From: Candidatus Woesearchaeota archaeon
Lineage (GTDB): Archaea; Nanobdellota; Nanobdellia; Woesearchaeales; GW2011-AR9
DNA length: 64,000 bases
Direction of reading: 5' to 3'
Assembly (NCBI GenBank): GCA_016179955.1
Contig: JACPCD010000007.1
Span: 5,907-69,906, forward strand
Every line of letters starts with the position of its first letter. Position 1 is the stretch's first letter. This document shows, piece by piece, positions 876 to 62,819 of this stretch. Both the position numbers and the translations under genes were made by a program. The notes below the pieces were generated by a model. It made no database searches. It had not been told where the DNA came from and saw only the letters and a program-made list of their open reading frames with translations.

Positions 876-951
876 TTTTGATTATCTGCTCCATAGTTTT
901 TCTCTCCCCGCTTTGAGCCCGGACGGCCTTGTTATTTATTTTTATTTGAAG

Positions 952-1035
952 GGCCGCAGGCGGGAATTGAACCCGCTCCTCTTGCTGTCAGCATAATTCC
1001 ACAGGCAAGAACGCTACCTATACGCTACTGCGGTC
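952..1035 (-). tRNA. tRNA-His (anticodon GUG) with a 12-nt intron in the anticodon loop, encoded G-1 and no encoded CCA
   Basis: The minus-strand cloverleaf was reconstructed by hand. G-1 pairs with discriminator C73. Acceptor is ACCGCAG/CUGCGGC with a single A1·C72 mismatch. D-stem is GCGU/GCGU with two G·U pairs and D-loop AUAGGUA. Anticodon stem is CUUGC/GCAAG and the loop is CUGUGG|A with anticodon GUG. There are 13 nt (AAUUAUGCUGACA) between G37 and stem position 39, so an intron at the canonical 37/38 site. Variable loop is AGGA and the T-arm is GCGGG-UUCAAUU-CCCGC. Confidence 0.8.
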
Positions 1036-1231: not shown

Positions 1232-3016
1232 TTAATTCTTAGACAGTCCTGCGAGCAACCGTGTTACATCTTTATACTCCACACAGTGATGTTGATAACA
1301 GTCCTGGATTTTATCACCATAGATTTGCATTGAATTGGCAGGAAGATGTTTCCAGTCGATCTTATGGGGAATGTGGATTATATGCCAATGATCCATAAAT
1401 GCCATGAGATTATAAAAATCGTGCTGTAATGGCCGTTTATATTCTGCCGCGGTGTATTCTTTCCCTAATATTATAGCGGCTCTTCGTTGGGCCATTGCTG
1501 CCAAAGAAGCGCTTGCGGGTGTAGGATGATCGTACATTTGTGCAGGAATTTCCATGAAATCAATATTCTTACTCTCTATCCAATGTCCATTATAGAATTT
1601 TTGCACTTGGGCATACAAAGTCGCAATGAGGTCTTTATATTCACCGGTTTCTTCATACAGGTAAGTGGCAAAGAGCAGCATGGCGGCATAATCCTCCAGG
1701 AATTCGCCCGGCTGTAAATTTTCTTGATAGGAACTGTGGTGCAATATTTTTCCGTGGTAATGTCGGGTTAGAATATTGTTGAACAAAAGATTAGCTTTTA
1801 TTTTTGCCATAGTATTATTGCAATGTCTGGAGGCCATGAGAAGTCCAATCCCAACCAAGGCATTCCAGCTAGTAAGATATTTTCTATCGGTAAACGGCTG
1901 TTTTCTTTTTTTGCGCAGACGTAATAATTTTTTTTCAATTTCGGGAAGAAAAGTATTAGTATGTTTGACCAGATGGATTTTGCCATCAAAGTTTTGTTCA
2001 AGCGTGTATACTTGCTGAAATTGTTGGTATTCTTCCTCATGTAAATGTTGCTGTAATTCAGCAAGGCCCCATACATAGGTGCTGCCTTCATGATGATCAG
2101 TATCGGCATCGTGCGCCGCATAGTACAGATTGCCGGCATAAGTATCTTCTAAACAGGTTATTATCTTTTCAACAATAGTTTTGTACGCTGGCTTTTTGAG
2201 TATCTTATACGCGAGGCTATAGACCCACAAATGCATGGCTTGATCATAGAGCATTTTCTCAAAATGGGGGATGGTCCAGGATTCGTCGATACAGTAGCGG
2301 TAAAAACCACCCTGCAGATGGTCATGCAACCCCCCTTTTACCATTTCATCAAGGATCTTTTCAAGAATATCTTTAACTTCTATATCTTGGTGTTGTTCGT
2401 ACCAGCTCAGTAAAAATAATAACGTGTTGTGGGGGGGAAATTGGGGGCCGGGAGTAAACCCAGTTCCCGTAAAATGAGCTTTAATTTCGGTGATTGTGGC
2501 CTGTTCGGCAATATTCTCTTGTGGAGGGATATGGTAATTATAGATTGGAATATTATCTGAATGTTGGCTATAAGACTGCTTCAGATGCTGTAATAAATCC
2601 AAGAATCCTGGTAATCCGTAACGGGGAGTTATAGGGACATAGGTTACAGCTAGAAATGGTCTTTGATCTGGAGTCAAGAACACATTCAGTGGCCATCCTC
2701 CGTGTCCCTGCGTTTCATGCATAAAGTTCATCAGGTAACTGTCAATATCAGGTCGTTGCTCTCTATCGACTTTGATGCACACAAAATGCTGGTTCAAAAA
2801 ATAGGCAATTTCTTTGTTTGAGAAAGCTTCCTGCGCCATAACATGACACCAATGGCAGGTCGCATAGCCTACTGATACCAACATTAATTTATGATTATTT
2901 TTGGCATGTTCTAGTACTTCGGGAGACCATTCTTGCCAGTGGATTGGATTATCTTTATGCTGCTGTAAGTAGGGAGACGTAGCGTAGTCTAAGTTATTTT
3001 TATGGAAGTTAATCAT
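1232..3016 (-). CDS. Thioredoxin-domain protein of the DUF255/YyaL family (N-terminal thioredoxin-like domain plus alpha/alpha six-hairpin domain)
   Basis: 594 aa. The N-terminus (HWQEWSPEVLEHAKNNHKLMLVSVGYATCHWCHVMAQEAF) matches the conserved DUF255 thioredoxin-like CxxC region. Confidence 0.6.
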   Translation of the reverse strand: MINFHKNNLDYATSPYLQQHKDNPIHWQEWSPEVLEHAKNNHKLMLVSVGYATCHWCHVMAQEAFSNKEIAYFLNQHFVCIKVDREQRPDIDSYLMNFMHETQGHGGWPLNVFLTPDQRPFLAVTYVPITPRYGLPGFLDLLQHLKQSYSQHSDNIPIYNYHIPPQENIAEQATITEIKAHFTGTGFTPGPQFPPHNTLLFLLSWYEQHQDIEVKDILEKILDEMVKGGLHDHLQGGFYRYCIDESWTIPHFEKMLYDQAMHLWVYSLAYKILKKPAYKTIVEKIITCLEDTYAGNLYYAAHDADTDHHEGSTYVWGLAELQQHLHEEEYQQFQQVYTLEQNFDGKIHLVKHTNTFLPEIEKKLLRLRKKRKQPFTDRKYLTSWNALVGIGLLMASRHCNNTMAKIKANLLFNNILTRHYHGKILHHSSYQENLQPGEFLEDYAAMLLFATYLYEETGEYKDLIATLYAQVQKFYNGHWIESKNIDFMEIPAQMYDHPTPASASLAAMAQRRAAIILGKEYTAAEYKRPLQHDFYNLMAFMDHWHIIHIPHKIDWKHLPANSMQIYGDKIQDCYQHHCVEYKDVTRLLAGLSKN

Positions 3017-3894
3017 GGGAGGGCAATATTTTCAATGAATTTGATATCTTTATCTGTAAGATTAAAGTCAAGTGCCAGATCCTCTTTCATATGAGTGGAA
3101 TTAGTTGTTCCGGTTAACGGTAATATCCCGATTTGCAGGGCAAATTTAAAGATAATTTGTGTTGATGTTGTATGTAATTTTGCGGCAAGGGGTTGTACTT
3201 GCGGCAACACCAAAGCATTCGCAGTTAGCAATGAAAATCCTTGATATATAATGCCTTTTTGGGTACAGAATTGCCGTATTTCTTTATCCCAGCCTAACTG
3301 CGCATAGCAGCGATTTTGCACGAAGGTTGGTTTTACAGCGGCTCGTTGATACAATTGTTGTAATTGATCGAGATTAACATTACTTATTCCAAGATAAGTC
3401 ACTTTTTGTTCTTTATGGATTGCTTCCATCTCCTGCCATACGTGCCAGTCAGCAGGTGCCAATCCTACCCCAGTAGAGGGGCCATGCAAGAGATAAGAAT
3501 CGATATAATTAGTCTGTAAATGTTGCAGTGAACTTTGAAACGATTGCCGTACTTGGGTGGCATAGTCAGCATATGGATTGTAGGGCAATCTATGATCTTG
3601 TCCATCAACAGAGGTGAATTTGGTTTGCAGAAAAAGTTGGTTTCGGTGAATACCGCTTTTAATGATGGCATTGCCCACTGCAGTTTCATTATAATGTTGG
3701 CGTTGATTGGCAGTATCGATAGCTCGAAAACCGGTCTTGAGGGCGGTAAGGACCAGATTTTCCGTAGCTTCTTCTTTCCAGGCAGTACCATAGATGATGA
3801 GTGGGGGTTGCATACTTTGAATAGAATGTTCTAATTTATAAGCGTTAGTGGCTTTTCGGTTAATATGAAGCATTTGTAATTTTTTATCTGTCAA
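3013..3894 (-). CDS. Aldo/keto reductase family oxidoreductase
   Basis: 293 aa. Carries AKR signatures (GTAWKEEATENLVLTALKTGFRAIDTANQRQHYNETAVGNAI and the LFLQTKF region). Confidence 0.75.
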   Translation of the reverse strand: MTDKKLQMLHINRKATNAYKLEHSIQSMQPPLIIYGTAWKEEATENLVLTALKTGFRAIDTANQRQHYNETAVGNAIIKSGIHRNQLFLQTKFTSVDGQDHRLPYNPYADYATQVRQSFQSSLQHLQTNYIDSYLLHGPSTGVGLAPADWHVWQEMEAIHKEQKVTYLGISNVNLDQLQQLYQRAAVKPTFVQNRCYAQLGWDKEIRQFCTQKGIIYQGFSLLTANALVLPQVQPLAAKLHTTSTQIIFKFALQIGILPLTGTTNSTHMKEDLALDFNLTDKDIKFIENIALP

Positions 3895-3931
3895 AATTAT
3901 AAAATGTTCACATTAGCCTACGAAAAACTTC

Positions 3932-4633
3932 TCAATCTTCAAACGCCAGCGAATGCATGCGCAGCCGCAGCACCACAAAGGCAATGGCACTAAATGTATA
4001 TCCGATTAGGTATCCCAAATCTCCTATCATCGCCACCGCACCATAATCCACCTGTCCGGCAGTATACGCAAAGAATAAGTCGCCTAACAAAATGAAGCAA
4101 CTGGAAACAAAAAATAATTTCAGGGAAGCACCAAAATCAGCCAGTTCCTGCGAAAAGAGCAGCACGCTTACCGCAAAGGCGACGATAAGTGAACTCAACA
4201 AAGGATAGACATAACTGAAAGTGGTGGCTGGCTGGATGAGCACGAACAGGTACAAGGCCACCAGAACAATCAGAACCCCTCCCACCAGCAGCTGGGGAAG
4301 CAGTTTGCCGCTGTGCGGATGCTGGCGGTACAACATCAAAGCTAATGCTAAAAAAGAAACCACCGTGAGAAAAGCCCCTCCTGACCAATACACATCCTGT
4401 ATTCCCAACAAGGATTGGTCGTCAAACACAAATTTGGTTAAGTAGTAAGAAACTTCCCCCAGCGCATACAACAGGTATCCCCACACCAGAAAGAAGAAAA
4501 TAAAGTAGTCTTTGTCTTCAAATAACTCCTTGAGCTTGTTGCGGAAAAATCCTTCCAGGGCCACAAAACCGGCCAATGCAGCCAACGCGGCTGCCAAGGC
4601 AATCAGCCCCTGAATCACGTTCCCTATCACCAT
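3932..4633 (-). CDS. Polytopic (~7 TM) membrane protein, function unknown
   Basis: 233 aa, entirely hydrophobic helices. No Schiff-base lysine or other catalytic motif was recognised. Confidence 0.4.
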   Translation of the reverse strand: MVIGNVIQGLIALAAALAALAGFVALEGFFRNKLKELFEDKDYFIFFFLVWGYLLYALGEVSYYLTKFVFDDQSLLGIQDVYWSGGAFLTVVSFLALALMLYRQHPHSGKLLPQLLVGGVLIVLVALYLFVLIQPATTFSYVYPLLSSLIVAFAVSVLLFSQELADFGASLKLFFVSSCFILLGDLFFAYTAGQVDYGAVAMIGDLGYLIGYTFSAIAFVVLRLRMHSLAFED

Positions 4634-10440: not shown

Positions 10441-12000
10441 TCACTGAAACCCAACATAACTCCGCTGCACTGTTTCATTCTTCTGCTGCTTCACAAACTC
10501 CTGGAACAACGGAATCTTAACTGGCACCGCAAACTTCGTAAACGTAGACGTTACCAACGCTTCTCCAATATCCAACGACGCAATAGTACGATTATCCTGG
10601 CTTAGATCCTGCGGCGAGCTTTCGATGACTGCCTGCCGTTCGGAATTCATCTCAATTCCTAAAATAATCTTGGTGTTTATGTTCGCCAGAATATTCTTCG
10701 GTATTTCCGAAGGAAGCTGGGTGATGGCAATCAATCCCACTTTAAATTTCCGCCCCTCTCGGGCAATACTCTCAAAAATGTTGCTGCCCTGCTCCAATAC
10801 TTTGGTGCCTAAAACCCGGGGCGCTTCTTCCAAAACGATAGAGATGACAGGCCTATCATCCAGCTGCCCCTGTTTCTTGTAGAACTTATATCTCTCAAAT
10901 ATTTCGGTGGTGATGATGCTCCCGATAAGTATTTCTATAGCCCCGGAAAAATAACTGGTGTCAATAATAACTATCTTCCCCTGCTCCAGTTCCCGGCAGA
11001 TGTCATTAATCGTACTTTCTCCGGCAATGGTGTCAAAGATGCCTTGAGCTGACAACTGTCCATCATGAAAATCCAATCCTAACAGCGAAATAAGTTTTCG
11101 CTTCACCACCGCAATGGTGTCTTCATGAAATTGTACATTTTGGATTTTTTCTTCATTGAGCAGGTGATAAATCCAGTTTTCACCAAATTTCTTATGATAG
11201 ACGTAAAGGCATTGCCGCTGCGGATCAGATAAAGAGATGGCTCCCTGAAAATGTTCCGGCTTGATTTTGGAAATATTGATCTTTAAAGAGGAAGCTCCCG
11301 GCGGCGGATTGACCGGGGTATAATATCGTATCTTGTCTTTGCGCGGATGGTCTTTAAGCCCTTTCCCATTTCGCCCATAATATTCATCATGAGGATCGAG
11401 AACCAGCATACCGGCATATTCTTTTCCCGCCACATCCCATAAGATGCAGGACATCAGGTTTGATTTTCCTTTGCCGGTACTCGCGGGAATCAACACGTGG
11501 TGGCTGAAGACTTCTTTGCCGGGCAGGAAGATGTCAAAATCTAATTCTTTACTGCCGCTGCGCAGCTGGCCCAGATAGAAAGGGGTGGAAGGAGTGGTAA
11601 TAAACGACAAATCTTCCCGAGAAATTTCTCGAACTTGGGAGAAAAAAGCCGGAAGTTTCTTGCAGGTCTTGCTGTTTTTGCCAACGGTGAGTACCGGCTT
11701 AAGAAAGGCCAGCTGATAATTCCGCAGGGACTCGTCCATGATGGCAAAACTTCCTTCTTCCAGATTCATCCCTGCCACCATCTCTAAATTTTGCTCTGAG
11801 ATTTGGCTGCCGTACAGTAAATCGTACACCTGCAGAATGAATTTCTCGTGGGGATGATCGATGACCATCAACTCTTTGCCCTTTGAGCATACTGGAGCAG
11901 AGTCCGGCTGGTTTTTAATGATTTGTATTCTCAAGAAACAGATTGACAAAAAATAAATTTCAAAATTATTCGAAAGGCCGTAGTACGGGGGATTGGGCAA
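10441..12000 (-). CDS. DUF87-type P-loop ATPase (HerA/FtsK/VirB4 superfamily)
   Basis: 519 aa. Walker A in DUF87 context ([21 protein letters not shown]) and a Walker B-like [10 protein letters not shown]. The true start is probably an internal Met. Confidence 0.6.
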
Positions 12001-17284: not shown

Positions 17285-18757
17285 ATGAAAACATTTCAAA
17301 ATTTGGAAACAGAAAAAAGCTTTTTTAGAGAAAAATGTTGTATTAGCTACGGTGACCAAAAAGTCTACTTTAATGAAATTATCCTGCCAAATCAGTTTAA
17401 GAAACTGTATTCCAAAGAGCGAATAATGCTCAGATTAAAGAAAGCGATTAACACCGCCAGCAGCCGGCCATCCTTTAACATCCCTTCTTCGTTGTGCCAA
17501 AAAAATGGGATAGAACCAGGTAAGATAGTAATTCTCCGGATAACTAACTCAAAGAAAACCTACGAAATAATAACCAAAGTTGGTGCTTGGAGGAGGATAA
17601 ATGTACCAAGAGAAGTAATCGATAGTCTTAATATTGTCCACGAGCAAAAAGTAATCATCGAGATTATTAAAGAAACAGACCACCGCAATTCAGAAAAGAA
17701 AGATTTAGTTTCATTGCTTGAACATAAAAAGAATATTAAAATGATTAATAGAGAAAACAATTATGTAACGATTTACTCCAGAAGAAAATTTCCCATAACT
17801 TTGCCAAAGAAAGTGTCATTAGAACCTGAACTCATAGAGTGTTTTTTCTTAATCCATGGAGACGGCCATTATAAAGAAAAATTATTCTTCACCAACAAAG
17901 ATATTGGGTTACATGAGTCAGTTATTGATCTATTGCAAAAGTACTTGGGCATCCCGACTTCTATATGGAAAATGAGAATAAATTTACATGAATCTTACAG
18001 AGAGAAAGAAGCTAAAAACTTCTGGTTAAATAATTTGAAATTTGATAAGCGACAATTTTATCCATCCATATCGAGAACAAAATTCAATACTTCTGCTCAA
18101 GGAAATTTGAGAATAGTAATAGATTATCCTATTGTTTCGGAGATTTTTAGAAACATCTTTATTTATATGCAACAAAATCTAAACCGAAAATCTAGCTTTT
18201 ATGCACTGAATGGCCTGTTCGCTGCGGAGGGCGGAGCACAAATAAGTGAAGTTGGACTGCATAGAATAACTTTAAGCTATAATTTTAAAGAGAAAGAAAT
18301 GTTCCAGAAAATATTAAAAAATTGTAATGTTCTTCACTTATTTAAAGATATTGAACAAGGAAATAATCACGGCATTTTTGTGTTGGAAGGCTGGGAAAAA
18401 TTATACCTTTTCTTTAAAGAGTTTGCCATTAAAAAAATTACACCATTTAACTTCCATAACGCTCGAAAACAAAGAGCCATTAATGGGATGATAGAACACT
18501 CTTTTACCAAAACGATGTGCAAATACTTAATGGCATTAAGTCAAAACAAAAAATACACTGTAAAAGAATTTTCAGAAAAACTCCAGATGAGAGAAGATTC
18601 ATGTTTATCTACATTAAGAAAAAAACAATATTCACCATTTATCAACATCAGTGGGCTAGGGATAAATAAGCAACCTTTTTCTATTTCAATAACCAAGCAA
18701 GGTCAAGAATTATTAACCATTATTTCAACTATGCGAGGTGAAAAGATGCATGAATAA
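17285..18757 (+). CDS. LAGLIDADG-type homing-endonuclease-like protein (two degenerate LAGLIDADG motifs) inside an AT-rich insertion
   Basis: 490 aa. Motifs FFLIHGDGHY and LNGLFAAEGGAQ lie about 100 aa apart. GC content is far below the flanking genes. The ORF overlaps the cbf5 start by 20 nt. Confidence 0.5.
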   Translation: MKTFQNLETEKSFFREKCCISYGDQKVYFNEIILPNQFKKLYSKERIMLRLKKAINTASSRPSFNIPSSLCQKNGIEPGKIVILRITNSKKTYEIITKVGAWRRINVPREVIDSLNIVHEQKVIIEIIKETDHRNSEKKDLVSLLEHKKNIKMINRENNYVTIYSRRKFPITLPKKVSLEPELIECFFLIHGDGHYKEKLFFTNKDIGLHESVIDLLQKYLGIPTSIWKMRINLHESYREKEAKNFWLNNLKFDKRQFYPSISRTKFNTSAQGNLRIVIDYPIVSEIFRNIFIYMQQNLNRKSSFYALNGLFAAEGGAQISEVGLHRITLSYNFKEKEMFQKILKNCNVLHLFKDIEQGNNHGIFVLEGWEKLYLFFKEFAIKKITPFNFHNARKQRAINGMIEHSFTKTMCKYLMALSQNKKYTVKEFSEKLQMREDSCLSTLRKKQYSPFINISGLGINKQPFSISITKQGQELLTIISTMRGEKMHE

Positions 18758-19597
18758 GCAAATATTTGTAAAGAGAAAAAGTATTGGAATCTTTGGAAAA
18801 AAGCCAGAAGAAAGGACTCCAGAAGAGCTTATCCATTATGGTATTATCAACATAGACAAGCTAAAAGGCCCAACCTCCCACCAGGTTTCTGACTATGTTC
18901 AAAGGATATTAGGCATTACCAAAGCTGGCCACTCCGGGACCTTAGAGCTATAATCAAGGAAATCCTCAAGTGACTGGTGTTCAGCCTATTGCCTTAGACA
19001 GAGCTACGCGTATCACCCAGTTTCTGTTAGCCGCGCCTAAAGAATATGTTGGTATTATGCATTTACATAAAGCGGTAGAGGAAGAAAAAATAAAAGAAGC
19101 AGTCCACTCTTTTTTAGGTAAAATAATGCAGCTTCCCCCGGTGAAAAGCGCCGTGAAGCGGGTGCAGCGGGAACGAGAGATCTACGAATTTAACCTGCTG
19201 GAAATAAAAGACAAAGACGTGTTGTTCCGGGTACGATGCCAGGCTGGCACGTATATCCGAAAATTAGTCCATGATTTGGGGCAGGCATTAGGAATCGGCG
19301 CGCACATGACCGAACTTCGGCGAACCCAAGCCGGGCCCGGTAGAAAAAGCATTGAAGTATATCCCCAAATGCTGGATTCTTGACTCCACCATTCCCAGCG
19401 TCTCGCATGGGCGAGACGTGGCGATTCCCGGCATCAGCAAATTAGAGAATTTCCGAAAAGGGGAAATTGTGGCGGTAATGACTCTGAAAGAGGAATTGGT
19501 GGCTATCGGTAAGAGTATGATGTCGGCAGTAGAAATTAACACTCAGCAGAAAGGGATTGCGATTGATGTGGAGAAAGTGTTTAACCATACTACTTAA
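18738..19597 (+). CDS. cbf5: tRNA/rRNA pseudouridine synthase Cbf5 (TruB catalytic domain plus PUA); the frame is interrupted twice
   Basis: Three consecutive ORFs (18738-18953, 18970-19383, 19352-19597) are collinear with archaeal Cbf5 (GPTSHQV, KAGHSGTL | DPQVTGVQPIAL, AGTYIRKL, ELRRTQAGP | KCWILDSTIPSVSHGRDVAIPGI, PUA domain). Confidence 0.8.
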
Positions 19598-19630: not shown

Positions 19631-20350
19631 GTGCCCTTTCAAAGCCGTACAGGAGGATTAAAAACTATGACCCAATTACAATTAGACGGACCAACTGTAC
19701 ATACAACGTATTACGGCAAAAACGTAGAACAAATGCCTAAACTTCTTGCCGAGGGCAAAGAACCAATGAGTGTGGCTCATTTAATGGAACAACGACTGGC
19801 AGTACGAGACCAAGGAGTAAGTCCAGTACAGCATGACGCATGGTGGGGTAATTATTTTGACAATGCTGATTTATGGCTGCGACATCCAGACAAAGGCGGA
19901 AAAGTAGTTCCCTACAGCGCCGCAGTGCTTACCTTTCTTCAAGAACATCTTAAACCCGAAACCAAGTTAGTGGATTATGGAGTTCCCTTACCCGATGGAT
20001 TATACGAAGCCATGGACGGATTAGAATTGAAAACAGCTGATATTGGACGATTGCATTCACGAGGATATACCCCTACAGAAGCCAAGAAATCAGTGGTATG
20101 GAGAGAGTTGGCGCGGACACAAAAACGCTTAGATAACTATGTTGATGCTGTTGTTGTGGAAACGGGCAGAGAGCGAGACTTAATGAATACCTACTTTGGT
20201 GAAGCTTCAAAAGTTCCAACCGGGCGGCTTTGGTTTGTCAGCGGCAGGAACAACGATTCCCTTGCGGGTGGCAACTACAATCTTACCCTTGACTATGGTC
20301 GCCTGGTCGGGGTAGCGCCGGAGGCGCACGTCGCGCGCGCAAAAAAATAA
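19631..20350 (+). CDS. DGR target protein; the C-terminus carries the variable repeat
   Basis: 239 aa. The last ~32 codons (20220-20316) match the downstream template repeat, with every mismatch at a template adenine. Confidence 0.75.
   Translation: MPFQSRTGGLKTMTQLQLDGPTVHTTYYGKNVEQMPKLLAEGKEPMSVAHLMEQRLAVRDQGVSPVQHDAWWGNYFDNADLWLRHPDKGGKVVPYSAAVLTFLQEHLKPETKLVDYGVPLPDGLYEAMDGLELKTADIGRLHSRGYTPTEAKKSVVWRELARTQKRLDNYVDAVVVETGRERDLMNTYFGEASKVPTGRLWFVSGRNNDSLAGGNYNLTLDYGRLVGVAPEAHVARAKK
20220..20316 (+). repeat. DGR variable repeat (VR)
   Basis: About 97 nt aligned to TR 20542-20638. The 14 differences all fall at TR adenines (TR AAC/AAT codons versus VR AGC, GGC, CTT, GGT, TAC, TAT). Confidence 0.85.
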
Positions 20351-20541
20351 GAAGTCTACACCACCAATATCTTTTTATATCTCCTTCTTTTTTCTTCGTT
20401 GTCCCAGCATCAGCCATGAAGGCTGTACCATGAGCTGGACTACACGTCTTTCCACCACGGCAGCACGGCTGCTATAAAATACAGCCCCAACTTGATGCAT
20501 AGCACTGAAGGGGCAGTGATATAGTCCGTGGAAGGGCTACT

Positions 20542-20638
20542 CCGGGCGGCTTTGGTATGTCAACAACAGGAACAACGATTCCAATGCGAATGGCAACAAC
20601 AATCTTACCAATGACAATGGTCGCCTGGTCGGAATAGA
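20542..20638 (+). repeat. DGR template repeat (TR)
   Basis: Adenine-rich (many AAC/AAT codons). Non-coding on its own but in frame with and immediately upstream of the RT ORF. Confidence 0.85.
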
Positions 20639-20669
20639 CCTGCTCATTTTTGCTGGGATATTTTCCCCT

Positions 20670-22328
20670 ATGGAAATTTCAACCATTTCTCTTTTTGACC
20701 AGCTATGCCATTATGATAATTTATATCTGGCATATTGGAAAGCACGAAAAGGAAAGACACAGAGAAAATACGTTCTTGACTTTGAAGAAAAATTACAGGA
20801 AAATCTTCTGCGGTTGCAGCAAGAACTTCAGTCTCAAACATATCATCCGAAGCCTTTAGAAACATTCATTCTCCGCGATCCCAAGACCAGGAAAATCAGT
20901 AAGTCTGATTTTCGTGACCGTGTTGTCCATCATGCACTCTGCAATATCATTGAACCGTTGTTTGAAAAAGGCTTTATTTATGATTCCTATGCCAACCGAA
21001 GAGGAAAAGGAACATTGAAAGCAGTACAACGATTTGATGAATTTAAGAAAAATGTTTCTAAAAATAATACCACTATTTGTTTCGTGTTAAAAGCAGACAT
21101 TAAGCATTATTTTGAAACTGTTGATCATGATATTTTATTAAGTATACTGAGTCAGAGAATTCATGATGAGAAGGTATTATGGCTAACCAAGATAATTCTG
21201 TCCAACCATTCCACCACCGCCCCAGGCACAGGAATGCCTCTGGGCAATTTAACATCACAATTTTTTGCCAACATCTATCTTAATGAGTTGGATCAATTTG
21301 TAAAACATACTCTCAAAGCAAGGTATTACATTCGATACGTTGATGACTTTGTGATTCTTCACTCATCCAGCAATCTATTGAAAATGTATGAACAGAAGAT
21401 AGGTTTATTCTTGCGGGAAAAGTTAGCCTTAGAACTTCATCCGCACAAATCAAAAATTGTTAACCTAGAATCAGGCGTTCATTTCTTAGGATTCAGGATA
21501 TTCTATCATTACCGGCTCATTCGAAAGAAAAATATGCATAAGTCTCAACAAAAGTTTCGGCAGCTACAGCAAGAATATCAGGAAGGATTGCTTAATCGGG
21601 AGAAAGTTATCGAATATCTTGAAGGCTGGCTGGCGTTTGCATCACAGGCAAATACCTATAAATATCGAAGATGGTTAATACGGTGGTTTAACCAAGCTTT
21701 TCCATTGGAACAAAAGACACCCCTGGTGGTTTTACAAAAACATCAGAACCTGATGATAAAATCGGAAGAAAGCCAGATACAATTTACCGTTCAGAAAACA
21801 CTTCAATTATTCAGAAAATGTTGGTCTATTTCCCAAATCGCGAGGGCCAGAGACATTACAGAATCTACGGTGTGGGCCCATTTGGCAAATCTGGTCGAAC
21901 ATTATCAAATACCACTGGCTAAGGTAATTCCAAAAGAAAAAATTATTAAAATTCTTCCAAAAATTAGGAATGAAAAAGAAACGTTGAAAGAAATTAAACA
22001 GAAGATTAATGATGCTTCCATAACTTATGAGGAGATAAATTGCGGCCTCGCAAGTATAAAAGCAAAGAAGAAGAAAAGAGGTATTGTCCCCATTGTTTCA
22101 AACTTTCAGCGAACAAATTGTTATCGCAAATGTTATTTTAATCCTCATCAGCGAAAAACATGTGCAAAGAAATTTGAATTATTCTGTTCCCATAATTCGA
22201 CACTGAAAATGAACCCCCAAGAATTTGTGGATTTATTTCAGAATCATATGACCATTTGCGTTCTTCCGGTGAAAGAGAGAAAAAATTACGTTTCGTGGAG
22301 AGAGTTTAGGAAGAATACATGGAAGTAA
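20670..22328 (+). CDS. DGR reverse transcriptase with a C-terminal HTH and cysteine-rich extension
   Basis: 552 aa. RT motifs include YIRYVDDFVI (YxDD) and the DGR-diagnostic PLGNLTSQFFANIY (LGxxxSQ). The C-terminus has ISQIARARDITESTVWAHLANL (sigma-70 region 4/LuxR-like HTH) and five Cys. Confidence 0.9.
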   Translation: MEISTISLFDQLCHYDNLYLAYWKARKGKTQRKYVLDFEEKLQENLLRLQQELQSQTYHPKPLETFILRDPKTRKISKSDFRDRVVHHALCNIIEPLFEKGFIYDSYANRRGKGTLKAVQRFDEFKKNVSKNNTTICFVLKADIKHYFETVDHDILLSILSQRIHDEKVLWLTKIILSNHSTTAPGTGMPLGNLTSQFFANIYLNELDQFVKHTLKARYYIRYVDDFVILHSSSNLLKMYEQKIGLFLREKLALELHPHKSKIVNLESGVHFLGFRIFYHYRLIRKKNMHKSQQKFRQLQQEYQEGLLNREKVIEYLEGWLAFASQANTYKYRRWLIRWFNQAFPLEQKTPLVVLQKHQNLMIKSEESQIQFTVQKTLQLFRKCWSISQIARARDITESTVWAHLANLVEHYQIPLAKVIPKEKIIKILPKIRNEKETLKEIKQKINDASITYEEINCGLASIKAKKKKRGIVPIVSNFQRTNCYRKCYFNPHQRKTCAKKFELFCSHNSTLKMNPQEFVDLFQNHMTICVLPVKERKNYVSWREFRKNTWK

Positions 22329-55596: not shown

Positions 55597-56259
55597 TTAG
55601 AAATGGTTTACTGATACCCACTTACAAAATCCACATTCTTCAGAGGGGGCGGGAATTTCTGTTTCTAAAACTTGAATAGCTTTCTTAAAAATACTTTCAG
55701 CGTTTTTGATATTGACTTTAATTTTGACCAAATCAGTATTAAAACAAACATGACCACTCTCTTCAACTTGATGGGGATGATAAAAAACTAAATAAGTATA
55801 ATCTTCTGTTTCATAACCGTTTTTTCTTAAGAGAAAGTTGTAAATATCCATTTGATCTTGATAATGCTCGTGAGTGTCTTCTTTCAGAGGATAACCTCTT
55901 GTCTTATAATCTAAAACAACTAATTTCTTACCTTTTACAAGAATATTATCAATCGCTCCCCTGAAGAGATTGCCTTTTTTATCCGTCCATTGAATTCCTT
56001 TAAAATTGCTTCTCCAAACCTTGAGCAATTCTTCGTCATCAAAAAGTTTAACCTTTCCGTTTAACTCTTGAAGTTCTGGCGGAAGTTCTCCTTTTCTCAT
56101 AAAAGAATCAAAGTGTTCTTTCAGAATCCTATCCATTCCGCTTGGTAAAGAGGGAAAGATTGAATCTGGTCTTTTAATCCCTTTATTGAAATTAAGCCAG
56201 AAGCATCTAGGACAATCTTTCAATAAACTTAATGATGATGGGCTGAATTTGTAGGTCAT
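55597..56259 (-). CDS. Cas4/RecB-family PD-(D/E)xK nuclease (DUF83-like) with a cysteine cluster
   Basis: N-terminal DCPRCFWLN. GAIDNILV (motif II Asp), VVLDYKT (D-x-K motif III), HYQDQMDIY (QxxxY). C-terminal ECGFCKW plus an additional Cys give 4-5 Cys, consistent with an Fe-S cluster. Confidence 0.55.
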   Translation of the reverse strand: MTYKFSPSSLSLLKDCPRCFWLNFNKGIKRPDSIFPSLPSGMDRILKEHFDSFMRKGELPPELQELNGKVKLFDDEELLKVWRSNFKGIQWTDKKGNLFRGAIDNILVKGKKLVVLDYKTRGYPLKEDTHEHYQDQMDIYNFLLRKNGYETEDYTYLVFYHPHQVEESGHVCFNTDLVKIKVNIKNAESIFKKAIQVLETEIPAPSEECGFCKWVSVNHF

Positions 56260-56261
56260 TT

Positions 56262-58544
56262 TTAACTAAATATAATCTCATTTAATTTTTTTATTTCATC
56301 TTCAGTTAGCTTATTCCTTGCATTTGGATTTAGAATAATGTCTCCTTTCAGGATTATTCTTGGATTTGAATCTACAAATACCAATTCTTGTTTAAAATAT
56401 ATTGCTCCTGAAACTATGTCTGTATTTTTATTTTTGTGGGAAAGACTATCTTCTTTCCTGGTCATATACTCGTTGACAACTTTCCCTGTCTTCTTCTCAA
56501 TTTGCCATGTATAAGCAAGACTCCCTAAGAAAGTGTCTATTAATTGATGTTCATCAATCGTTGAATTACTCCTATCAATTACCACAAAAAACAGGTCTTT
56601 TCTTTTACCACTCTCAATCTCTTGTAACGTTTTATTTGCGAATAATTGCCTATATTTTTTATCAATAGTAGAAAATGCCTTATTTTTTAGAGCAACAGCC
56701 CCATTCGCCAATCTTAATTCTCTATCCATTTTTGGTCTGGTTATTTCAAAGTAAATATCTCTCTCAAATAGATTAACCTTCAAATCCAAATTTTTATCAG
56801 TCCTATTTGGGGGCAATGGTTCTATTGCTTTGATACTTTTATCTTTAAATCTGTTTATAAAAATTAACTCGCTGAAATAATCCCAGAAATAGTTATCGTT
56901 GGCAAAATTTTGTTTAATGCTTTTTGTAAGATGTTCTTTCTGTTTATACTTCTCATTCTTTTTCTGCTCAATGGTTGCTATGTCCTGATTTAGTTCATTC
57001 AGATATGCTTGAGGCCAGAATTTGCTTCTTGCAAAATCAAGTTTTAATGCTCTATCTAACTCGGAATTTTTTTCAGAAATATTAATGTCATCTAAATTAG
57101 GTTGTTCATTTTCTCCTAACCACAAAAGAGGGGTATATTGCTTCTTTTTCTTTGCTTCGCTGATTACATCTTTTGCATATCTATACAGGTCTGGATATTT
57201 CTTGAGATTATCCTCAATTTTGGTAAAATCATAATCTTCTTTTCTATTCCTAAACTGGTTGAGAAGTTCTCCTGCGAAATCTATTAAAAAATCATAATCG
57301 TCCCTAGTGAATGTTGATTTTTGTTTCCGCTCTCGATATTTATCTTTGTTAAAATCAATGAAACCTCTTTCTTTAGTCCTCTTAATTAAATTATCAATAA
57401 GCTTAGTTACAATATCTTTCTTAGTTATGTCTTGGTATACATTACCAATGATTACTTTGTTTAACTCAAAGAAGAGGTATTTCTCCTCTTTATCTGATAA
57501 ATCTAATTTTAATACTTGATCTAGAGCATAAGCTGTATGGTGTTTGGATAGGGTTTTAAATAAATGAGGGAAAATGATGATATATGATTTTGATTTTTTA
57601 GTTTGAATATTTTTATAATTCTCCAAGAAATATTTAGTAAATAGCTTGTTCTTCTTAACAAGTCCTTCTAATACCCAGTCAAAATGCTTTAATTTAAACT
57701 CTAAATCTCTATTTAACCAGTAGATAAATAAGTCTGATATTTGTGTGTATGGTTTTGGAAATTTTCTTAACACTTCTACGATTTTATCTATTACCACCTC
57801 ATCTAAATCTTTTGAATATTCAATAAGCTCTATAATTTGCTTTTGGTTTAGTATGTCCTGAAAAGTTAATCTATCAAAAACTAAGTATGTAATATTCTTT
57901 TCTTTTAGTTTCACTAACTCGAGAATTTTACTGTAAAAATAAGTCTTGTTTTTCTTATAGAATATCAAGCAGATATTAGTAAACTCTTGAAGCACTTTCC
58001 TATCTTGAGAATTAGATACTTTGTCAAGATAGGAGTAAATTCCCTTTGGTAACTTTGAAAAGTCGTATTTTACTTGTATTGCTTTCAATAGGGAATTTGT
58101 TAGGGGGTATTCAATCTTCTTTTTCAAGTGATTTAACAGGGCTTCGTTATTGTTTATTGAGAAGCCGCCCAGCATTAACCCGGAGATTACTTTAAAATCA
58201 TTATCTTTTGATTTAGTAATTATTCTTTCATAAAGAGAAATAGCAAAATCCGGTTTATTTTTTCCAATATCTTCCAATATTCTTAAAAATGGTCCCTGAG
58301 CCATGTCTCTCTTAATCTTTTCATAAATCTTCTCTAATAGTACAATATACTTGTCAGAGCTTTCTGCTAGGTCATAAGCGATTGCAGAAACAAGTTCAGA
58401 ATAACCCCAGAAATCTGATCCTGTGAGAAAATGCTCAATCAGTTTGTATTTTTCTTCATTAGGTAATTTAGACTTATGACTATTGTAAATCTTTATTTGT
58501 TCTTCAAATTTATAGTACTTATCTTTAAGTTCTTCTTTAATCAT
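56262..58544 (-). CDS. Large hypothetical protein (760 aa), no recognisable domain
   Basis: AT-rich codon usage. It overlaps both neighbours by a few nt, consistent with an operon with the MTase/helicase genes. Confidence 0.4.
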   Translation of the reverse strand: MIKEELKDKYYKFEEQIKIYNSHKSKLPNEEKYKLIEHFLTGSDFWGYSELVSAIAYDLAESSDKYIVLLEKIYEKIKRDMAQGPFLRILEDIGKNKPDFAISLYERIITKSKDNDFKVISGLMLGGFSINNNEALLNHLKKKIEYPLTNSLLKAIQVKYDFSKLPKGIYSYLDKVSNSQDRKVLQEFTNICLIFYKKNKTYFYSKILELVKLKEKNITYLVFDRLTFQDILNQKQIIELIEYSKDLDEVVIDKIVEVLRKFPKPYTQISDLFIYWLNRDLEFKLKHFDWVLEGLVKKNKLFTKYFLENYKNIQTKKSKSYIIIFPHLFKTLSKHHTAYALDQVLKLDLSDKEEKYLFFELNKVIIGNVYQDITKKDIVTKLIDNLIKRTKERGFIDFNKDKYRERKQKSTFTRDDYDFLIDFAGELLNQFRNRKEDYDFTKIEDNLKKYPDLYRYAKDVISEAKKKKQYTPLLWLGENEQPNLDDINISEKNSELDRALKLDFARSKFWPQAYLNELNQDIATIEQKKNEKYKQKEHLTKSIKQNFANDNYFWDYFSELIFINRFKDKSIKAIEPLPPNRTDKNLDLKVNLFERDIYFEITRPKMDRELRLANGAVALKNKAFSTIDKKYRQLFANKTLQEIESGKRKDLFFVVIDRSNSTIDEHQLIDTFLGSLAYTWQIEKKTGKVVNEYMTRKEDSLSHKNKNTDIVSGAIYFKQELVFVDSNPRIILKGDIILNPNARNKLTEDEIKKLNEIIFS

Positions 58545-59196
58545 TTTCCCACCTAAAGTAATTTACTATTTTGTATTTATTGAGTTTACGATTTTTTATT
58601 CTGAACAAATTACATCCAGAGCAGAATGGTGATGCTATGGTCTTATAATAATTATTTTTTGATAATTCATGAAGAACAAAGACCATTTGATCAAAAATAA
58701 GCTCAGGAGATGAATATCTCTCAATACATTGATTTAAGACATCTTGCTTTTGTTGGATTTCACCAACATCACCAAAAATTAATACAGCATCATTATAAAC
58801 AGAATAAGAACCTTTGTTAAAATAATTAATTTTGAGACTATTTATATCAATTAAGATGAACTGAATTTCAGAGATATGGATGATCTTTTGTATTTCTTGA
58901 ATTAATTTCCTATTTTTAAAATTGATCTTACAAAACTTTTTAACTTCCTCAAGATATTCAGAATTACCTGCGCCGGTAAAAACATATTTGTTCTCTATTT
59001 GAAATATTTTCTCTGTTTGATTTACCCCTATTGGTCTTTCAGCGATAGATATTGGATAATACTTTTCTCCACCAATATCTATCATATCTTTTATTGAAAT
59101 GTTGTTGTAATCTATAAGAGACCCAGATTCTTGCCTATCTGCACAAACTAACACTGATTTATCTTTCTTAAGATTTATAACAATAATTGCAGTCAT
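58537..59196 (-). CDS. Hypothetical protein (219 aa)
   Basis: No motif recognised. Its start overlaps the MTase gene stop (59193-59196). Confidence 0.35.
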   Translation of the reverse strand: MTAIIVINLKKDKSVLVCADRQESGSLIDYNNISIKDMIDIGGEKYYPISIAERPIGVNQTEKIFQIENKYVFTGAGNSEYLEEVKKFCKINFKNRKLIQEIQKIIHISEIQFILIDINSLKINYFNKGSYSVYNDAVLIFGDVGEIQQKQDVLNQCIERYSSPELIFDQMVFVLHELSKNNYYKTIASPFCSGCNLFRIKNRKLNKYKIVNYFRWEND

Positions 59197-62100
59197 TTTC
59201 CAAACTCCTCAACAATCTTGATCTCTTCCGGCGTCAGCTCGTATAATTTGTACACTAACTGGTCAATCTCTTTCTCCAAACGCTTTACTTTGGCTTGTTT
59301 GTCAGGATTGTCTAAATAATCATCGTCTTTGGTGATGGAGAGGATTTGGTCGACGAGGTGGATGAATGGTTTTTGCTGGTCAGGAGAAATTTCTTTAATT
59401 GGGATTTCTGATAATGGTGCGGAATATAATTCTAATAAATCGCCTTTTCTTTTTCCTTTATAATATAACCAACAAAAATATAATTTTGAATTCAATAGTC
59501 CAGTTATATACTTTAAGTTAACATCTTGAATTTTCTTTGTAATAAAGTAAACATCTCTTGAGGCGTACCAAGGGATATCGCAATATGCAAATTTATTCGT
59601 TTTTGATCTATAAGGGGTTAATATTTTTTCTGCCTCAAAGTTCATATCTAATCTAGGTGTATTTAATACCCACCAATTACCTCTTCTAAAAGCTCCTCTT
59701 AAATTAGCCCCTTTTCTAGACGAAATTTCTGTTTTAAACATAGATAAATACTCATAGATGCCTTTTAAATCAAAGATATTTTCTTTAATTTTCTCATGTA
59801 GATACAGTATGTACTGATTTGTACTTTTCTTAAAATAATATTTATCAATATCTGAATTTTTATAAAATGGTTTTAAATAATCTAATTCCTTTTTTGATTT
59901 AATTATTTCTTTTACTTTGTCACTAGAAATGACGTAAACCTTATCCATGCTACTTTCTAATCCGATTAATGTGTTGCATATACTTCCTAAGGGAACAGCA
60001 TTCTTATCTAATACCATTTTAGAAAATATTTGTTGAACTGGATTGTCAAAATTAACGTTGCCACTAACTCTAATGTATTTTTCATCACCTTCAAATAATT
60101 CTAATTGAGGAATATTATGATACTCTGTTTCCTCATCTTGCTTGAACAAAATAACATTTAGTATATTGGATGTTGCAAGTCCAGTTCTGTTTACTACAGA
60201 TGTAATTCCTAAAACAGATTTATTTTTTGATTTTGTAAGAAGAGTTATCATATTATGTTGACCTGCCGCAGATTCAAATACTTTTAATTCATTAAAATTA
60301 ATTAATTCTCTAATAACTGATCTTTGATATAAGTCAAATCTGAGTTTTTTAGCCCCTAATGCAGTTATAAAATAATTAGTAGTTATCATTGCAATTTGGG
60401 CATTATTTCTTGTCAAATTTAGTGCTAAATGAAAAAAGAAATAAAAATAATCCATTCTTCCAAGATAATACTCTTTTAAATTACCTTTCTGAACCTCAAA
60501 AAATACATCTTTATGTTTTCTTTCCCCAACATACGGCGGATTCCCTATCACCACATCAAACCCCGGATTCTCCCTTTGGAACACTTCTGCAAAATAAAGC
60601 TTCCATAAAAAGAATGGTTTAGATTTATTCTTCTTATATTCCTGCAATTTCTCAATAGCAGCACTATTTCCCTCTTCTTTAAGCGTCTCTTCAACCAATC
60701 CCCATTCTAACTTATCAATCTCTTCTCTTAATTGTTTTTTCAGCTTCCTATTTTGCTCATTGAAGAATTTTCTTTGTAATTCTTTTAACTCTTTTAATTT
60801 ACGCTGAGATTCTTTTATTCTTTTAGAAAGAGAATCATCTAAAGTAGCTTGAGAAGAAATTTTGTCTTTCCTTGCCTCTAATTCAATTTTCCGCCGTTCT
60901 TTTTCTAATTTCTCCAAATCCTTCTCAAAATTTTCTCCCTCGTAATCATCATACAATCTCTTAATTTTCCCACCTATTTCCGACAATTCTTTAGAATAAT
61001 CTCTCTTTACTTCTCCTAATAACTTCTCATCAAACAGCTTCTTGCCCTCAAATTCCTCCAGAAGTGAATTACCGCACATAATCTTATGGTCTAAGTTTGG
61101 CAGCGGTTCAATATTTCTGATACTTTCCTCATCTACTATTAAAGACAGCCAAAACCGCAATTTAGCGATATCAACTGCAGAACTATCAATATCCACACCA
61201 TATAGGCTGTTTTCGATAGCCTCACGCTTTAATTTGTAAGCGCTCCTATTTTTCTGCTCTTCCGGCTTAAAGAATATAGATAAAATCGACCTGGCTTTAA
61301 CAATTTCCGTCATCATTCCTACTGGAAAAGCTCCAGAGCCTACCGCAGGATCAACAACTTTAATCTCTTTTAGCAATTTATCAATCAATTCTTTATTTGC
61401 TATAATTGATTTAGGGAGATTTAACTTTTCTAATTCTCTATTTATTTCTTCTTCGAATACTTTAATAGAAATTATTCCTTTCTTTAATTTTTCTTGTTTC
61501 TTATCTATCTCTTGTAAAACACGAATAGAATTAGCTAGTGTCAAATCCCCTAATTGAATAAATTTTTCAATATCTTCTCTAACTATTTGGGTATTTGTCT
61601 CTAAATAATTAATCAGAGATTGCTGACACATATAATGGACAATCTCACGAGGAGTGTAAAAAGCTCCTTTAGACTTCCTGTCAATAACATCTAGTAGATT
61701 TTCAAATACTTTACCCAACATTTCAGGATCTACTGCTACCTCTTTTTCTAATGGCTCATCTTCTTTAACGGTAAAATTATAGGTATCAAATGTTTTGAAA
61801 ATATCCCTAAAGACATCATCGTCCAAATTTATTTTAGTGTCAATCCAATTATAATCATTTATTGGTTCGAATAAACCACCATTAAGAAATGGGATTTTAC
61901 ATTTAAACAAAGTGTGATAACCATCATCTCCTTCTCGGGGATTATTCAAAGCATCATAAAACAATGGTTCCAGAATATCATTAAAGAAATTCTTGTAAGT
62001 TATTATGTCTTTATCAAATAATTTCTTCATGAAATCTTTTGGACCAGTTCCCCATTCTTTGTTTATCTTCACACCAAGCCAACCTTTTTTCTGTAAGAAA

Positions 62101-62819
62101 TATAAGAATACTATCTGTCCTAATAATTTCTTAGAAAACTCGGTTGCAGAAATACTTTTCTCTTCAAATTCTTTCTGAACGTACTTATCATCACTAATCA
62201 CTTTCAGCAAAGAATCATTTAATTTTAAGAATAATTCTTTATACCGTTCAAAGAATTCTTTGGTAACTTTTTCAATACTAAACACACTTTCTAATTCTTG
62301 TAAAGTAGGGTTTCTATTTTCTTCTTCTACTAAGGCCAAAAACTGTTTTCTACAGGTATGATTCGGCTCATTTACCCCAACTAAGAACGAATATCTTTTT
62401 GCTGGGGTTAATTCTGGAATAACCTTGCCATTATCCGCTAAATTATACTCCATTTTAACGAAAGATAAACGCCAATCTTCCGGCTCATCACCGTAAAACG
62501 CCACTAAAGCCGCATCTTTGTGGTAATTACCGAGATACTTGGCAATAAAATTTCTTTGCATGGTTCTAGCTCTGTCCACAGAATCAGTTCTTTTCAGCTT
62601 AACGGTAAGAATATCCATCACTTTCTTATTAGAGTCAATATAACTGCCATAATTATGATAGGATTCAATATAATCTTTATATTCCCCCCACACTTCAGAA
62701 GTCTTTTCTTTAACTTCAAAACCGTTTAATAATTCTCGAACAAAGCGGAGAAAACGCCCTACTTCAAACTCTTGTCCAAAAGTTTCATTAAGTAAGTTAA
62801 CGGTTTGCTGTCTTTCCAT
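59193..62819 (-). CDS. Gamma-class N6-adenine DNA methyltransferase with a ~480-aa N-terminal region and a C-terminal TRD-like region (Type ISP/IIG- or PglX-like)
   Basis: 1208 aa. Motif I VVDPAVGSGAFPVGMM (Eco57I-like DPAxGSGxF) lies upstream of motif IV VIGNPPYVGERKHKD (NPPY), the gamma arrangement. A ~350-aa tail follows the catalytic domain. Confidence 0.75.
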   Translation of the reverse strand: MERQQTVNLLNETFGQEFEVGRFLRFVRELLNGFEVKEKTSEVWGEYKDYIESYHNYGSYIDSNKKVMDILTVKLKRTDSVDRARTMQRNFIAKYLGNYHKDAALVAFYGDEPEDWRLSFVKMEYNLADNGKVIPELTPAKRYSFLVGVNEPNHTCRKQFLALVEEENRNPTLQELESVFSIEKVTKEFFERYKELFLKLNDSLLKVISDDKYVQKEFEEKSISATEFSKKLLGQIVFLYFLQKKGWLGVKINKEWGTGPKDFMKKLFDKDIITYKNFFNDILEPLFYDALNNPREGDDGYHTLFKCKIPFLNGGLFEPINDYNWIDTKINLDDDVFRDIFKTFDTYNFTVKEDEPLEKEVAVDPEMLGKVFENLLDVIDRKSKGAFYTPREIVHYMCQQSLINYLETNTQIVREDIEKFIQLGDLTLANSIRVLQEIDKKQEKLKKGIISIKVFEEEINRELEKLNLPKSIIANKELIDKLLKEIKVVDPAVGSGAFPVGMMTEIVKARSILSIFFKPEEQKNRSAYKLKREAIENSLYGVDIDSSAVDIAKLRFWLSLIVDEESIRNIEPLPNLDHKIMCGNSLLEEFEGKKLFDEKLLGEVKRDYSKELSEIGGKIKRLYDDYEGENFEKDLEKLEKERRKIELEARKDKISSQATLDDSLSKRIKESQRKLKELKELQRKFFNEQNRKLKKQLREEIDKLEWGLVEETLKEEGNSAAIEKLQEYKKNKSKPFFLWKLYFAEVFQRENPGFDVVIGNPPYVGERKHKDVFFEVQKGNLKEYYLGRMDYFYFFFHLALNLTRNNAQIAMITTNYFITALGAKKLRFDLYQRSVIRELINFNELKVFESAAGQHNMITLLTKSKNKSVLGITSVVNRTGLATSNILNVILFKQDEETEYHNIPQLELFEGDEKYIRVSGNVNFDNPVQQIFSKMVLDKNAVPLGSICNTLIGLESSMDKVYVISSDKVKEIIKSKKELDYLKPFYKNSDIDKYYFKKSTNQYILYLHEKIKENIFDLKGIYEYLSMFKTEISSRKGANLRGAFRRGNWWVLNTPRLDMNFEAEKILTPYRSKTNKFAYCDIPWYASRDVYFITKKIQDVNLKYITGLLNSKLYFCWLYYKGKRKGDLLELYSAPLSEIPIKEISPDQQKPFIHLVDQILSITKDDDYLDNPDKQAKVKRLEKEIDQLVYKLYELTPEEIKIVEEFGK

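Follow-up and report, generated by a model that had tools for sequence, protein, structure and literature searches.

In the 64,000-nucleotide stretch of Candidatus Woesearchaeota archaeon contig JACPCD010000007.1 analysed here (hereafter the window), the gene for Cbf5, the catalytic subunit of the H/ACA pseudouridine synthase, is interrupted by a 16-nt element that is very probably a pre-mRNA intron of the bulge-helix-bulge (BHB) type in a DPANN archaeon, one whose cleavage and ligation we infer from its sequence and from that of its relatives. Introns in protein-coding genes are extremely rare in Archaea, with cbf5 as the textbook case; its pre-mRNA intron was reportedly described in the crenarchaea Aeropyrum, Sulfolobus and the Desulfurococcales by Watanabe in 2002 and Yoshinari in 2006. 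The crenarchaeal introns are 16–44 bp long and mostly of unconventional BHB form, with splicing confirmed by cDNA in several species, and they lie between the first and second base of the catalytic Asp codon (PMC2738675). They are confined to the Desulfurococcales and Sulfolobales, with secondary losses, and the same 2009 study treated the cbf5 of Nanoarchaeum equitans as intron-less and left the origin and mobility of the intron open (PMC2738675). Full-text literature searches on cbf5 introns and on protein-coding BHB introns in DPANN archaea, incomplete in their coverage, found no report of this intron from that group. A known but rare archaeal mRNA intron, thought to be limited to two crenarchaeal orders, has almost certainly now been found in a second, distant group.

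The coding region at 18738–19597 on the forward strand was identified as cbf5 by its matches to NCBIfam NF003280 (E=1e-101) and to Pyrococcus Cbf5 structures (E=7e-90), and its nearest database proteins are Cbf5 of Woesearchaeota and Nanoarchaeota (DPANN), about 310 aa long and 64–71% identical. Within it, an open reading frame (ORF) at 18738–18953 terminates in ...KAGHSGTLEL and a stop codon, and the following frame picks up as ...NPQVTGVQPIALDRATRI (...NPQVTGVQP). An initial annotation of this DNA had proposed that a 16-nt insert interrupts the gene and that its removal gives GTLDPQVTG, and ORF and deletion analysis bore this out: with 18947–18962 removed the sequence becomes ...KAGHSGTLDPQVTGVQPIAL, and the spliced reading ...GHSGTLDPQVTGVQP regains HSGTLDPQVTG. 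Because an A flanks each end, removal of 18946–18961 (AGCTATAATCAAGGAA) leads to the same product. The register originally chosen, 18947–18962, is right as to the product but fails the BHB pairing test, which the 18946–18961 register passes. The crenarchaeal precedent invoked at the time also holds in detail, as the insertion point in the window is identical, between the G and the AT of the Asp66 codon in GTLDP.

Under the published BHB substrate rule, exon 1 ends with the outer-helix strand, a 4-nt strand of the central helix and two bulge bases, while the 3' end of the intron supplies the complementary 4 nt followed by two bulge bases of its own (PMC2738675; PMC5829648), the archaeal cut falling between the second and third bulge nucleotides (PMC2738675). 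With slashes marking the cuts, the 18946–18961 register reads 5'-GGGA CCUU AG/A GCUAUAAUC AAGG AA/A UCCU-3'. Its outer helix (h) pairs GGGA at 18936–18939 with UCCU at 18963–18966 (4 bp, one of them G-U), its central helix (H) pairs CCUU at 18940–18943 with AAGG at 18956–18959 (4 bp), and the bulges consist of A18944 and G18945 before the cut and A18946 after it on the 5' side, and of A18960 and A18961 before the cut and A18962 after it on the 3' side. The element has two opposite 3-nt bulges, a 4-bp spacer helix and at least one outer helix, in a relaxed form of the motif, and the cuts predicted after 18945 and 18961 recreate the GAT codon of the Asp and restore the frame. A BHB-type fold, which the initial annotation could not find in the flanks, is present in the very register that the frame demands. 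Complete pairing of four central and four outer positions is more than chance would give, being found at about 4e-4 of window positions (24 and 27 of 63,940 on the two strands), and the ViennaRNA minimum-free-energy fold of 18925–18985 includes h, H and the AAA bulge. A window-wide scan for BHB mini-introns joining ORFs gave 424 candidates, the true one among them, and was too unspecific for use.

Inserts at the same site were found in many related archaea. A genome scan identified a 20-nt insert at the same cbf5 codon position in another 'Nanoarchaeota' metagenome-assembled genome (MAG; L033), and the C-terminal half, used as a protein query, brought up many Cbf5 fragments of 214 aa starting with 'MHLHK...'. 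The contigs that encode these fragments have a 67-aa ORF with the DKCLD motif followed by the 214-aa ORF, with inserts of 17–18 nt at the same site, and the 214-aa fragments are the products of gene callers faced with a cbf5 split at the intron site. A structure-agnostic pattern scan of metagenome contigs, with the conserved flanking codons fixed and 10–40 free bases between them, returned 41 loci. Together with those found earlier, they represent 40 distinct alleles of 11–31 nt, all at the same site and in the same codon phase, and L108 later contributed a further allele of 27 nt. The interruption in L040 was rejected as an intron, being a run of N that marks a scaffold gap.

The central helix is fully paired in all 40 alleles and in none of the 40 when the register is slid by 1–4 nt on either strand. 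When introns were permuted among alleles 10,000 times, a mean of 15.2 and a maximum of 25 were fully paired, never 40. Synonymous changes of the Thr and Leu codons make the exon strand of H differ between alleles (CCUU, CUCU, CAUU, CGUU, CACU, CCCU and CUUU), and the intron strand tracks these changes (AAGG, AGAG, AAUG, AACG, AGUG, AGGG and GAAG, respectively). When pairs were counted in the paired flanks alone (24 alignment columns, left after the variable inner part had been taken out by hand), H was 100% paired and two of its four pairs had double changes: pair 7-15 occurs as all four Watson-Crick types (CG in 17, UA in 6, AU in 4 and GC in 4) and pair 8-14 as UA in 23, CG in 7 and UG in 1. 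The covariation score was 0.352, against 0.172 for shuffles, and 0 of 500 shuffles scored as high. The outer helix has 3–5 bp in most alleles, and those in which a Gly codon breaks it mostly have an inner hairpin of 3–9 bp, as would be predicted for hBH versus HBh' substrates; the relatives span the full range of the motif, including canonical forms with an inner helix (h') of 3–9 bp.

The predicted cuts between the second and third bulge nucleotides rebuild the Asp codon and the frame in all 40 alleles. Of 38 loci that are complete on the downstream side, 37 have a virtually spliced frame that runs open for 238–259 codons past the junction (760 codons in one, L092), and the sole truncated frame among the 38 is that of the window. 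The intron-bearing genes are therefore under selection to encode Cbf5, which requires that the insert be removed. Comparison with the cbf5 of sister genomes, proposed as a check in the initial annotation, came out in favour of an intron, with same-site inserts and otherwise open frames in these 37 loci. The BHB-type mRNA intron, at first only one of several options, gains strong support from the fold in the required register, the covariation across 40 alleles and the identity of the site with that in crenarchaea. In a rough neighbour-joining tree of Cbf5, built from a biased sample, intron-bearing sequences are spread over many deep branches and, within the clade to which the window belongs, are mixed with intron-less ones, a patchiness that points to repeated loss or gain.

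In the transcript, the tRNA splicing endonuclease EndA would cut each bulge between its second and third base, which places the cuts after 18945 and 18961, and an RtcB-type ligase would join the exons, recreating the GAT of the catalytic Asp and the frame. From unspliced mRNA, translation would yield no more than 67 aa and miss the active site; splicing would thus be obligatory and could limit the expression of Cbf5. The intron-containing tRNA mentioned in the initial annotation is indeed present in the window as a tRNA-His(GUG) with a 12-nt intron at 37/38 (Table 1), which implies that a splicing endonuclease and a ligase exist in the host. As a separate observation by eye, 3 of the 4 central-helix positions of the tRNA-His intron pair under the same BHB model. 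An association of relaxed BHB substrates with DPANN EndA enzymes that have an L3 loop has been described (PMC5829648).

Several points weigh against an intron in the window. The inner helix is reduced to a single pair (G18947:C18955), leaving the motif in the relaxed hBH, or bulge-helix-loop (BHL), form; the minimum-free-energy fold of 18925–18985 shows a slightly different 5' bulge; and the folding energy of these 61 nt is no better than that of shuffles (z = -0.13). As this z-score is uninformative for 61 nt, we relied on covariation instead. A Pfam scan of 40 larger ORFs in the window detected neither EndA nor RtcB. Finally, a gap of about 104 nt downstream in the same gene, if real, bars full-length Cbf5 from this allele even after splicing.

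The cbf5 of some relatives contains further elements. A second BHB mini-intron of 18–24 nt, absent from the window, occurs in L061 and L062 (both at ~2297-2316), L063, L082/L086, L084, L094 and L095, between the second and third base of a Thr or Ser codon (KPKGP-T-SHQ). With UCCG:CGGA as central helix and a covarying inner hairpin, it gives these relatives two introns in one archaeal protein-coding gene. In addition, the Cbf5 of L038 (~2450-3942) and L037 (~3040-4530) has a LAGLIDADG-containing intein, which begins with CLHP..., finishes with ...VSSN before the C that follows it, and sits before the Cys of CHDLG in YIRKLCHDLG. The 760-codon spliced frame of L092 may contain another intein.

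Upstream of cbf5 and ending within its start region is ORF490, with a G+C content of ~30%, compared with ~45% in the neighbouring sequence. The ORF upstream of cbf5 matches HYU22_01310 of Candidatus Woesearchaeota archaeon at NCBI with 100% identity, which places the window in a woesearchaeal MAG. ORF490 has no Pfam family match, and a PDB sequence profile matched only its C-terminal MarR-like part. An AlphaFold (AF2) model built with 29 database homologues (predicted local distance difference test, pLDDT, 89.4; predicted template modelling score, pTM, 0.86) was compared with known structures by Foldseek, which assigned a PHS018-like domain to the N-terminus, a double LAGLIDADG fold to the centre (PI-PfuI, PI-SceI, the I-OnuI family, E-DreI and WhiA) and a MarR-type winged helix to the C-terminus. 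The predicted structure has the double fold with an acidic residue ending each motif helix, and these residues, D193 of GDG and E315 of AEG, are invariant in an alignment of 30 sequences. ORF490 is thus a candidate for a homing endonuclease of the free-standing kind, associated with the intron-bearing cbf5.

If so, the intron might be selected mainly at the DNA level. ORF490 would cut intron-less cbf5 in the DNA that encodes the active site, and the intron, by interrupting the recognition site, would shield its carriers; both would spread together by gene conversion, with splicing merely rendering the intron harmless. Such collaborative homing would supplement the BHB-intron explanation and is compatible with it, and we consider it a tentative proposal that is somewhat unlikely to be correct. 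Apart from the confidently predicted fold with its invariant D193 and E315 and the AT-richness of the gene relative to its surroundings, it draws on the distribution of ORF490, whose homologues, in the loci analysed, adjoin cbf5 only where the intron is present (8 distinct lineages, one of them with the gene in divergent orientation, and 0 of 35 intron-less loci). Two homologues picked regardless of the intron, P0205 (in divergent orientation) and P0234, also adjoin intron-bearing cbf5. In some genomes ORF490 is joined in frame to exon 1 of cbf5: eight ORF490-Cbf5 fusion proteins in the database end in the first intron (...GTLE), with three others ending in the second. The contigs L055-57 and L058-60 share the same intron and differ in the presence of ORF490. 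Among them, L060 has an ORF490 disrupted by an insertion sequence, with an IS200-type Y1 transposase (676-1104) upstream of the truncated gene, and a vestigial duplicate of cbf5 codons 1–43 (310-438) that ends at the site of the second intron, which looks like the scar of the insertion or decay of an ORF490 cassette. The patchy distribution of the intron on the Cbf5 tree fits the same proposal, and there is a precedent in cyanophage S-PM2, where the free-standing endonuclease F-CphI and the group I intron of psbA are a case of collaborative homing (PMC6083498). However, many intron-bearing loci are without ORF490, the sampling is biased and phylogenetically non-independent, the nuclease role of ORF490 is putative (WhiA has the same fold and is a purely DNA-binding regulator), and the crenarchaeal cbf5 introns have no reported LAGLIDADG neighbour. 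Were collaborative homing to operate, it would explain why DPANN and Crenarchaeota share the codon at which an EndA-spliced intron too short for a nuclease gene is found, its patchy distribution, and why selfish elements accumulate in the woesearchaeal cbf5, where two mini-introns and an intein occur along with ORF490, and it would answer the question of Yokobori et al. as to how an intron too short for a nuclease could move (PMC2738675). The association with ORF490 offers a directly testable hypothesis on the movement of such short introns.

Returning to the window copy of cbf5, alignments to homologues and to Pyrococcus Cbf5 revealed a second discontinuity, at 19337/19338, that the initial annotation had overlooked. 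Missing between two flanking prolines are 34 codons, FTEKDNLVTLNDLQDAYHFYKEENNPKFLLHCIQ (FTE...CIQ), which are kept in all close homologues and in Pyrococcus Cbf5. The Logan contig L051 (SRR12113431) matches the window at 100% identity along the 7,463 nt that end at 19337, and past this point it continues with GTTCACGGAAGCGGAC..., encoding the expected (P)FTEADNLVTLNDLQDAVYFYQHENNP, until the contig ends; L052, from another run (SRR12113424), ends exactly at 19337. The read-through in L051 indicates that an intact version of cbf5 is present in the population of this organism, and the gap junction of the window coincides with a contig break. Nor is the 104-nt lesion seen in any of the 37 other intron-bearing loci that are complete on the downstream side. 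Most likely, it is either a mis-join across a coverage or scaffold gap or a minor deletion allele. Given its absence from L051 and from these 37 loci, the lesion bears on this assembly or allele and not on the nature of the 16-nt element.

Further searches bearing on the gap were negative. With four homologous peptides as tblastn queries, the missing 34-codon segment was not found elsewhere in the window, where it might have formed a permuted or trans-spliced exon (no hit better than E=0.1), and the tail of L051 was not matched there either. To find same-strain contigs over the right side of the gap, the exact products of the downstream genes (the 227-aa and 239-aa forms and the reverse transcriptase) and the 137-aa product of the deletion allele were looked up, and none was on record. 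The idea that the gap arose when the neighbouring reverse transcriptase copied back a transcript after a second BHB excision was dropped, since by eye the left flank, CGGG/CC, has no plausible partner in the sequence of relatives. In another metagenome, a C-terminal fragment of Cbf5 (P0121) has a tandem duplication of KFLRHCIQP...ENFKK in the same region as the gap, which suggests that this region is prone to assembly problems in mixed populations.

The second lesion is what favours a decaying pseudogene, in which the 16-nt insert would be one random lesion among several in a cbf5 being lost by a reduced genome: the same copy is frameshifted at 19337/19338 and has lost 34 conserved codons. We consider this improbable. 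The insert site is common to 40 alleles with compensatory covariation, the intron-bearing relatives have intact frames, and L051, with 100% identity over 7,463 nt as far as the junction, is without the lesion. Moreover, the other 276 codons, which are 72–78% identical to homologues in a multiple alignment, contain no further stop or frameshift. The initial annotation had named additional lesions in cbf5 as evidence that would speak against an intron, and such a lesion does occur in the window copy but not in the same-strain L051 or in the relatives. That the 16 nt are a sequencing or assembly indel in a gene that is really uninterrupted at this site, as had also been suggested, has a negligible probability: although the source is a MAG and the gap at 19337/19338 shows imperfect assembly nearby, L051 and L052, Logan assemblies made independently from separate runs, both contain exactly these 16 nt, which effectively refutes the indel, and homologous inserts occur in dozens of unrelated JGI, ENA and NCBI assemblies.

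Coordinates of the features discussed are collected in Table 1. The region between cbf5 and the metallophosphatase gene is occupied in the window by an insert that relatives are without, and the complete products of its genes are not on record in other assemblies. At 11512-11875, in a HerA/DUF87-like gene, identity between the window and L051 (1-364) falls from 100% to 89% over 364 nt, which could be due to strain-level recombination or a variable segment. The nuclease and restriction cluster on the reverse strand is probably a defence or restriction island.

Table 1. Positions of the cbf5 intron, its host gene and other features in the window
Feature	Position	Strand	Basis and remarks
tRNA-His(GUG) with 12-nt intron AAUUAUGCUGAC at 37/38	951..1034	-	ARAGORN with intron option; Rfam tRNA match
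ORF490, 490 aa	17285..18757	+	Predicted AbrB-like, double LAGLIDADG and MarR-type winged helix-turn-helix domains; end within cbf5 start region
BHB motif	18936..18966	+	Helices h and H and two 3-nt bulges; fold, covariation and published cleavage rule
cbf5 exon 1	18750..18945	+	Met1-Leu65 and first base (G) of catalytic Asp66 codon; start MNKQIFVK aligns with homologue starts
16-nt BHB-type intron (very probable) AGCUAUAAUCAAGGAA	18946..18961	+	Removal regains GTLDPQVTG; BHB rule satisfied in this register
cbf5 exon 2, first part	18962..19337	+	AT of Asp66, then PQVTG...ELRRTQAGP; 100% identity with Logan contig L051 as far as 19337
Junction of ~104-nt gap, +1 frameshift	19337..19338	+	Alignments to homologues and Pyrococcus Cbf5
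cbf5 exon 2, remainder	19338..19597	+	PUA domain, (P)VEKALKYIPKCWILDS...NHTT and stop; +1 frame relative to preceding part
Insert between cbf5 and metallophosphatase gene	19631-22328	+	239-aa ORF (no family), RT-16 RNA, reverse transcriptase
RT-16 RNA	20410-20545	+	Within 19631-22328; Rfam RF03019, 56 bits
Reverse transcriptase	20670-22328	+	RVT_1 and HTH_40
Nuclease/restriction cluster	55597-63840	-	PD-(D/E)XK nuclease, two no-family ORFs, 1,208-aa Eco57I/MmeI-type restriction-methylase, helicase C-terminal fragment

If the 16-nt element and its counterparts are BHB introns, EndA-dependent mRNA splicing would be much more widespread than reported, and the DPANN cbf5 alleles would form a natural library of minimal substrates of 11–31 nt for studying the specificity of the DPANN endonuclease. 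The intron would also account for the 67-aa and 214-aa 'genes' that gene callers make of cbf5 in many woesearchaeal MAGs, a split that can distort both completeness and annotation.

Compared with the introns of archaeal tRNAs and rRNAs that are processed by EndA and RtcB, the cbf5 element has the same two 3-nt bulges 4 bp apart, and the relaxed hBH, HBh' and BHL forms are seen in those introns as well; its size range overlaps the 11–175 nt of archaeal tRNA introns, the 12-nt intron of the tRNA-His in the window being one of these. In contrast to them, the cbf5 intron belongs to an mRNA that encodes a protein; codons constrain the exon strand of the helix, and the intron strand follows synonymous changes of the Thr and Leu codons. 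Similar to F-CphI and psbA, an endonuclease-like gene adjoins a conserved intron-containing gene and is not inside the intron, and the intron interrupts the most conserved DNA, which encodes the active site. The cbf5 element differs in being a protein-spliced BHB mini-intron and not a ribozyme, and ORF490 in being a LAGLIDADG protein with additional AbrB-like and winged helix-turn-helix domains and a putative nuclease.

The closest parallel is the crenarchaeal cbf5 intron, with which the DPANN introns share the gene and the insertion point between the G and the AT of the catalytic Asp codon. They also share a short length (16–44 bp there, 16 nt in the window and 11–31 nt in its relatives), a mostly relaxed BHB, predicted cuts between the second and third bulge nucleotides and a patchy occurrence among related lineages. 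They differ in the host, which is a DPANN archaeon of the Woesearchaeota/Nanoarchaeota type and not a member of the Desulfurococcales or Sulfolobales, and in the endonuclease, which is probably a DPANN alpha4 enzyme with an L3 loop and not an (alpha-beta)2 enzyme (PMC5829648). A second intron in the same gene of some DPANN relatives and a LAGLIDADG gene alongside further set the DPANN introns apart from those of crenarchaea.

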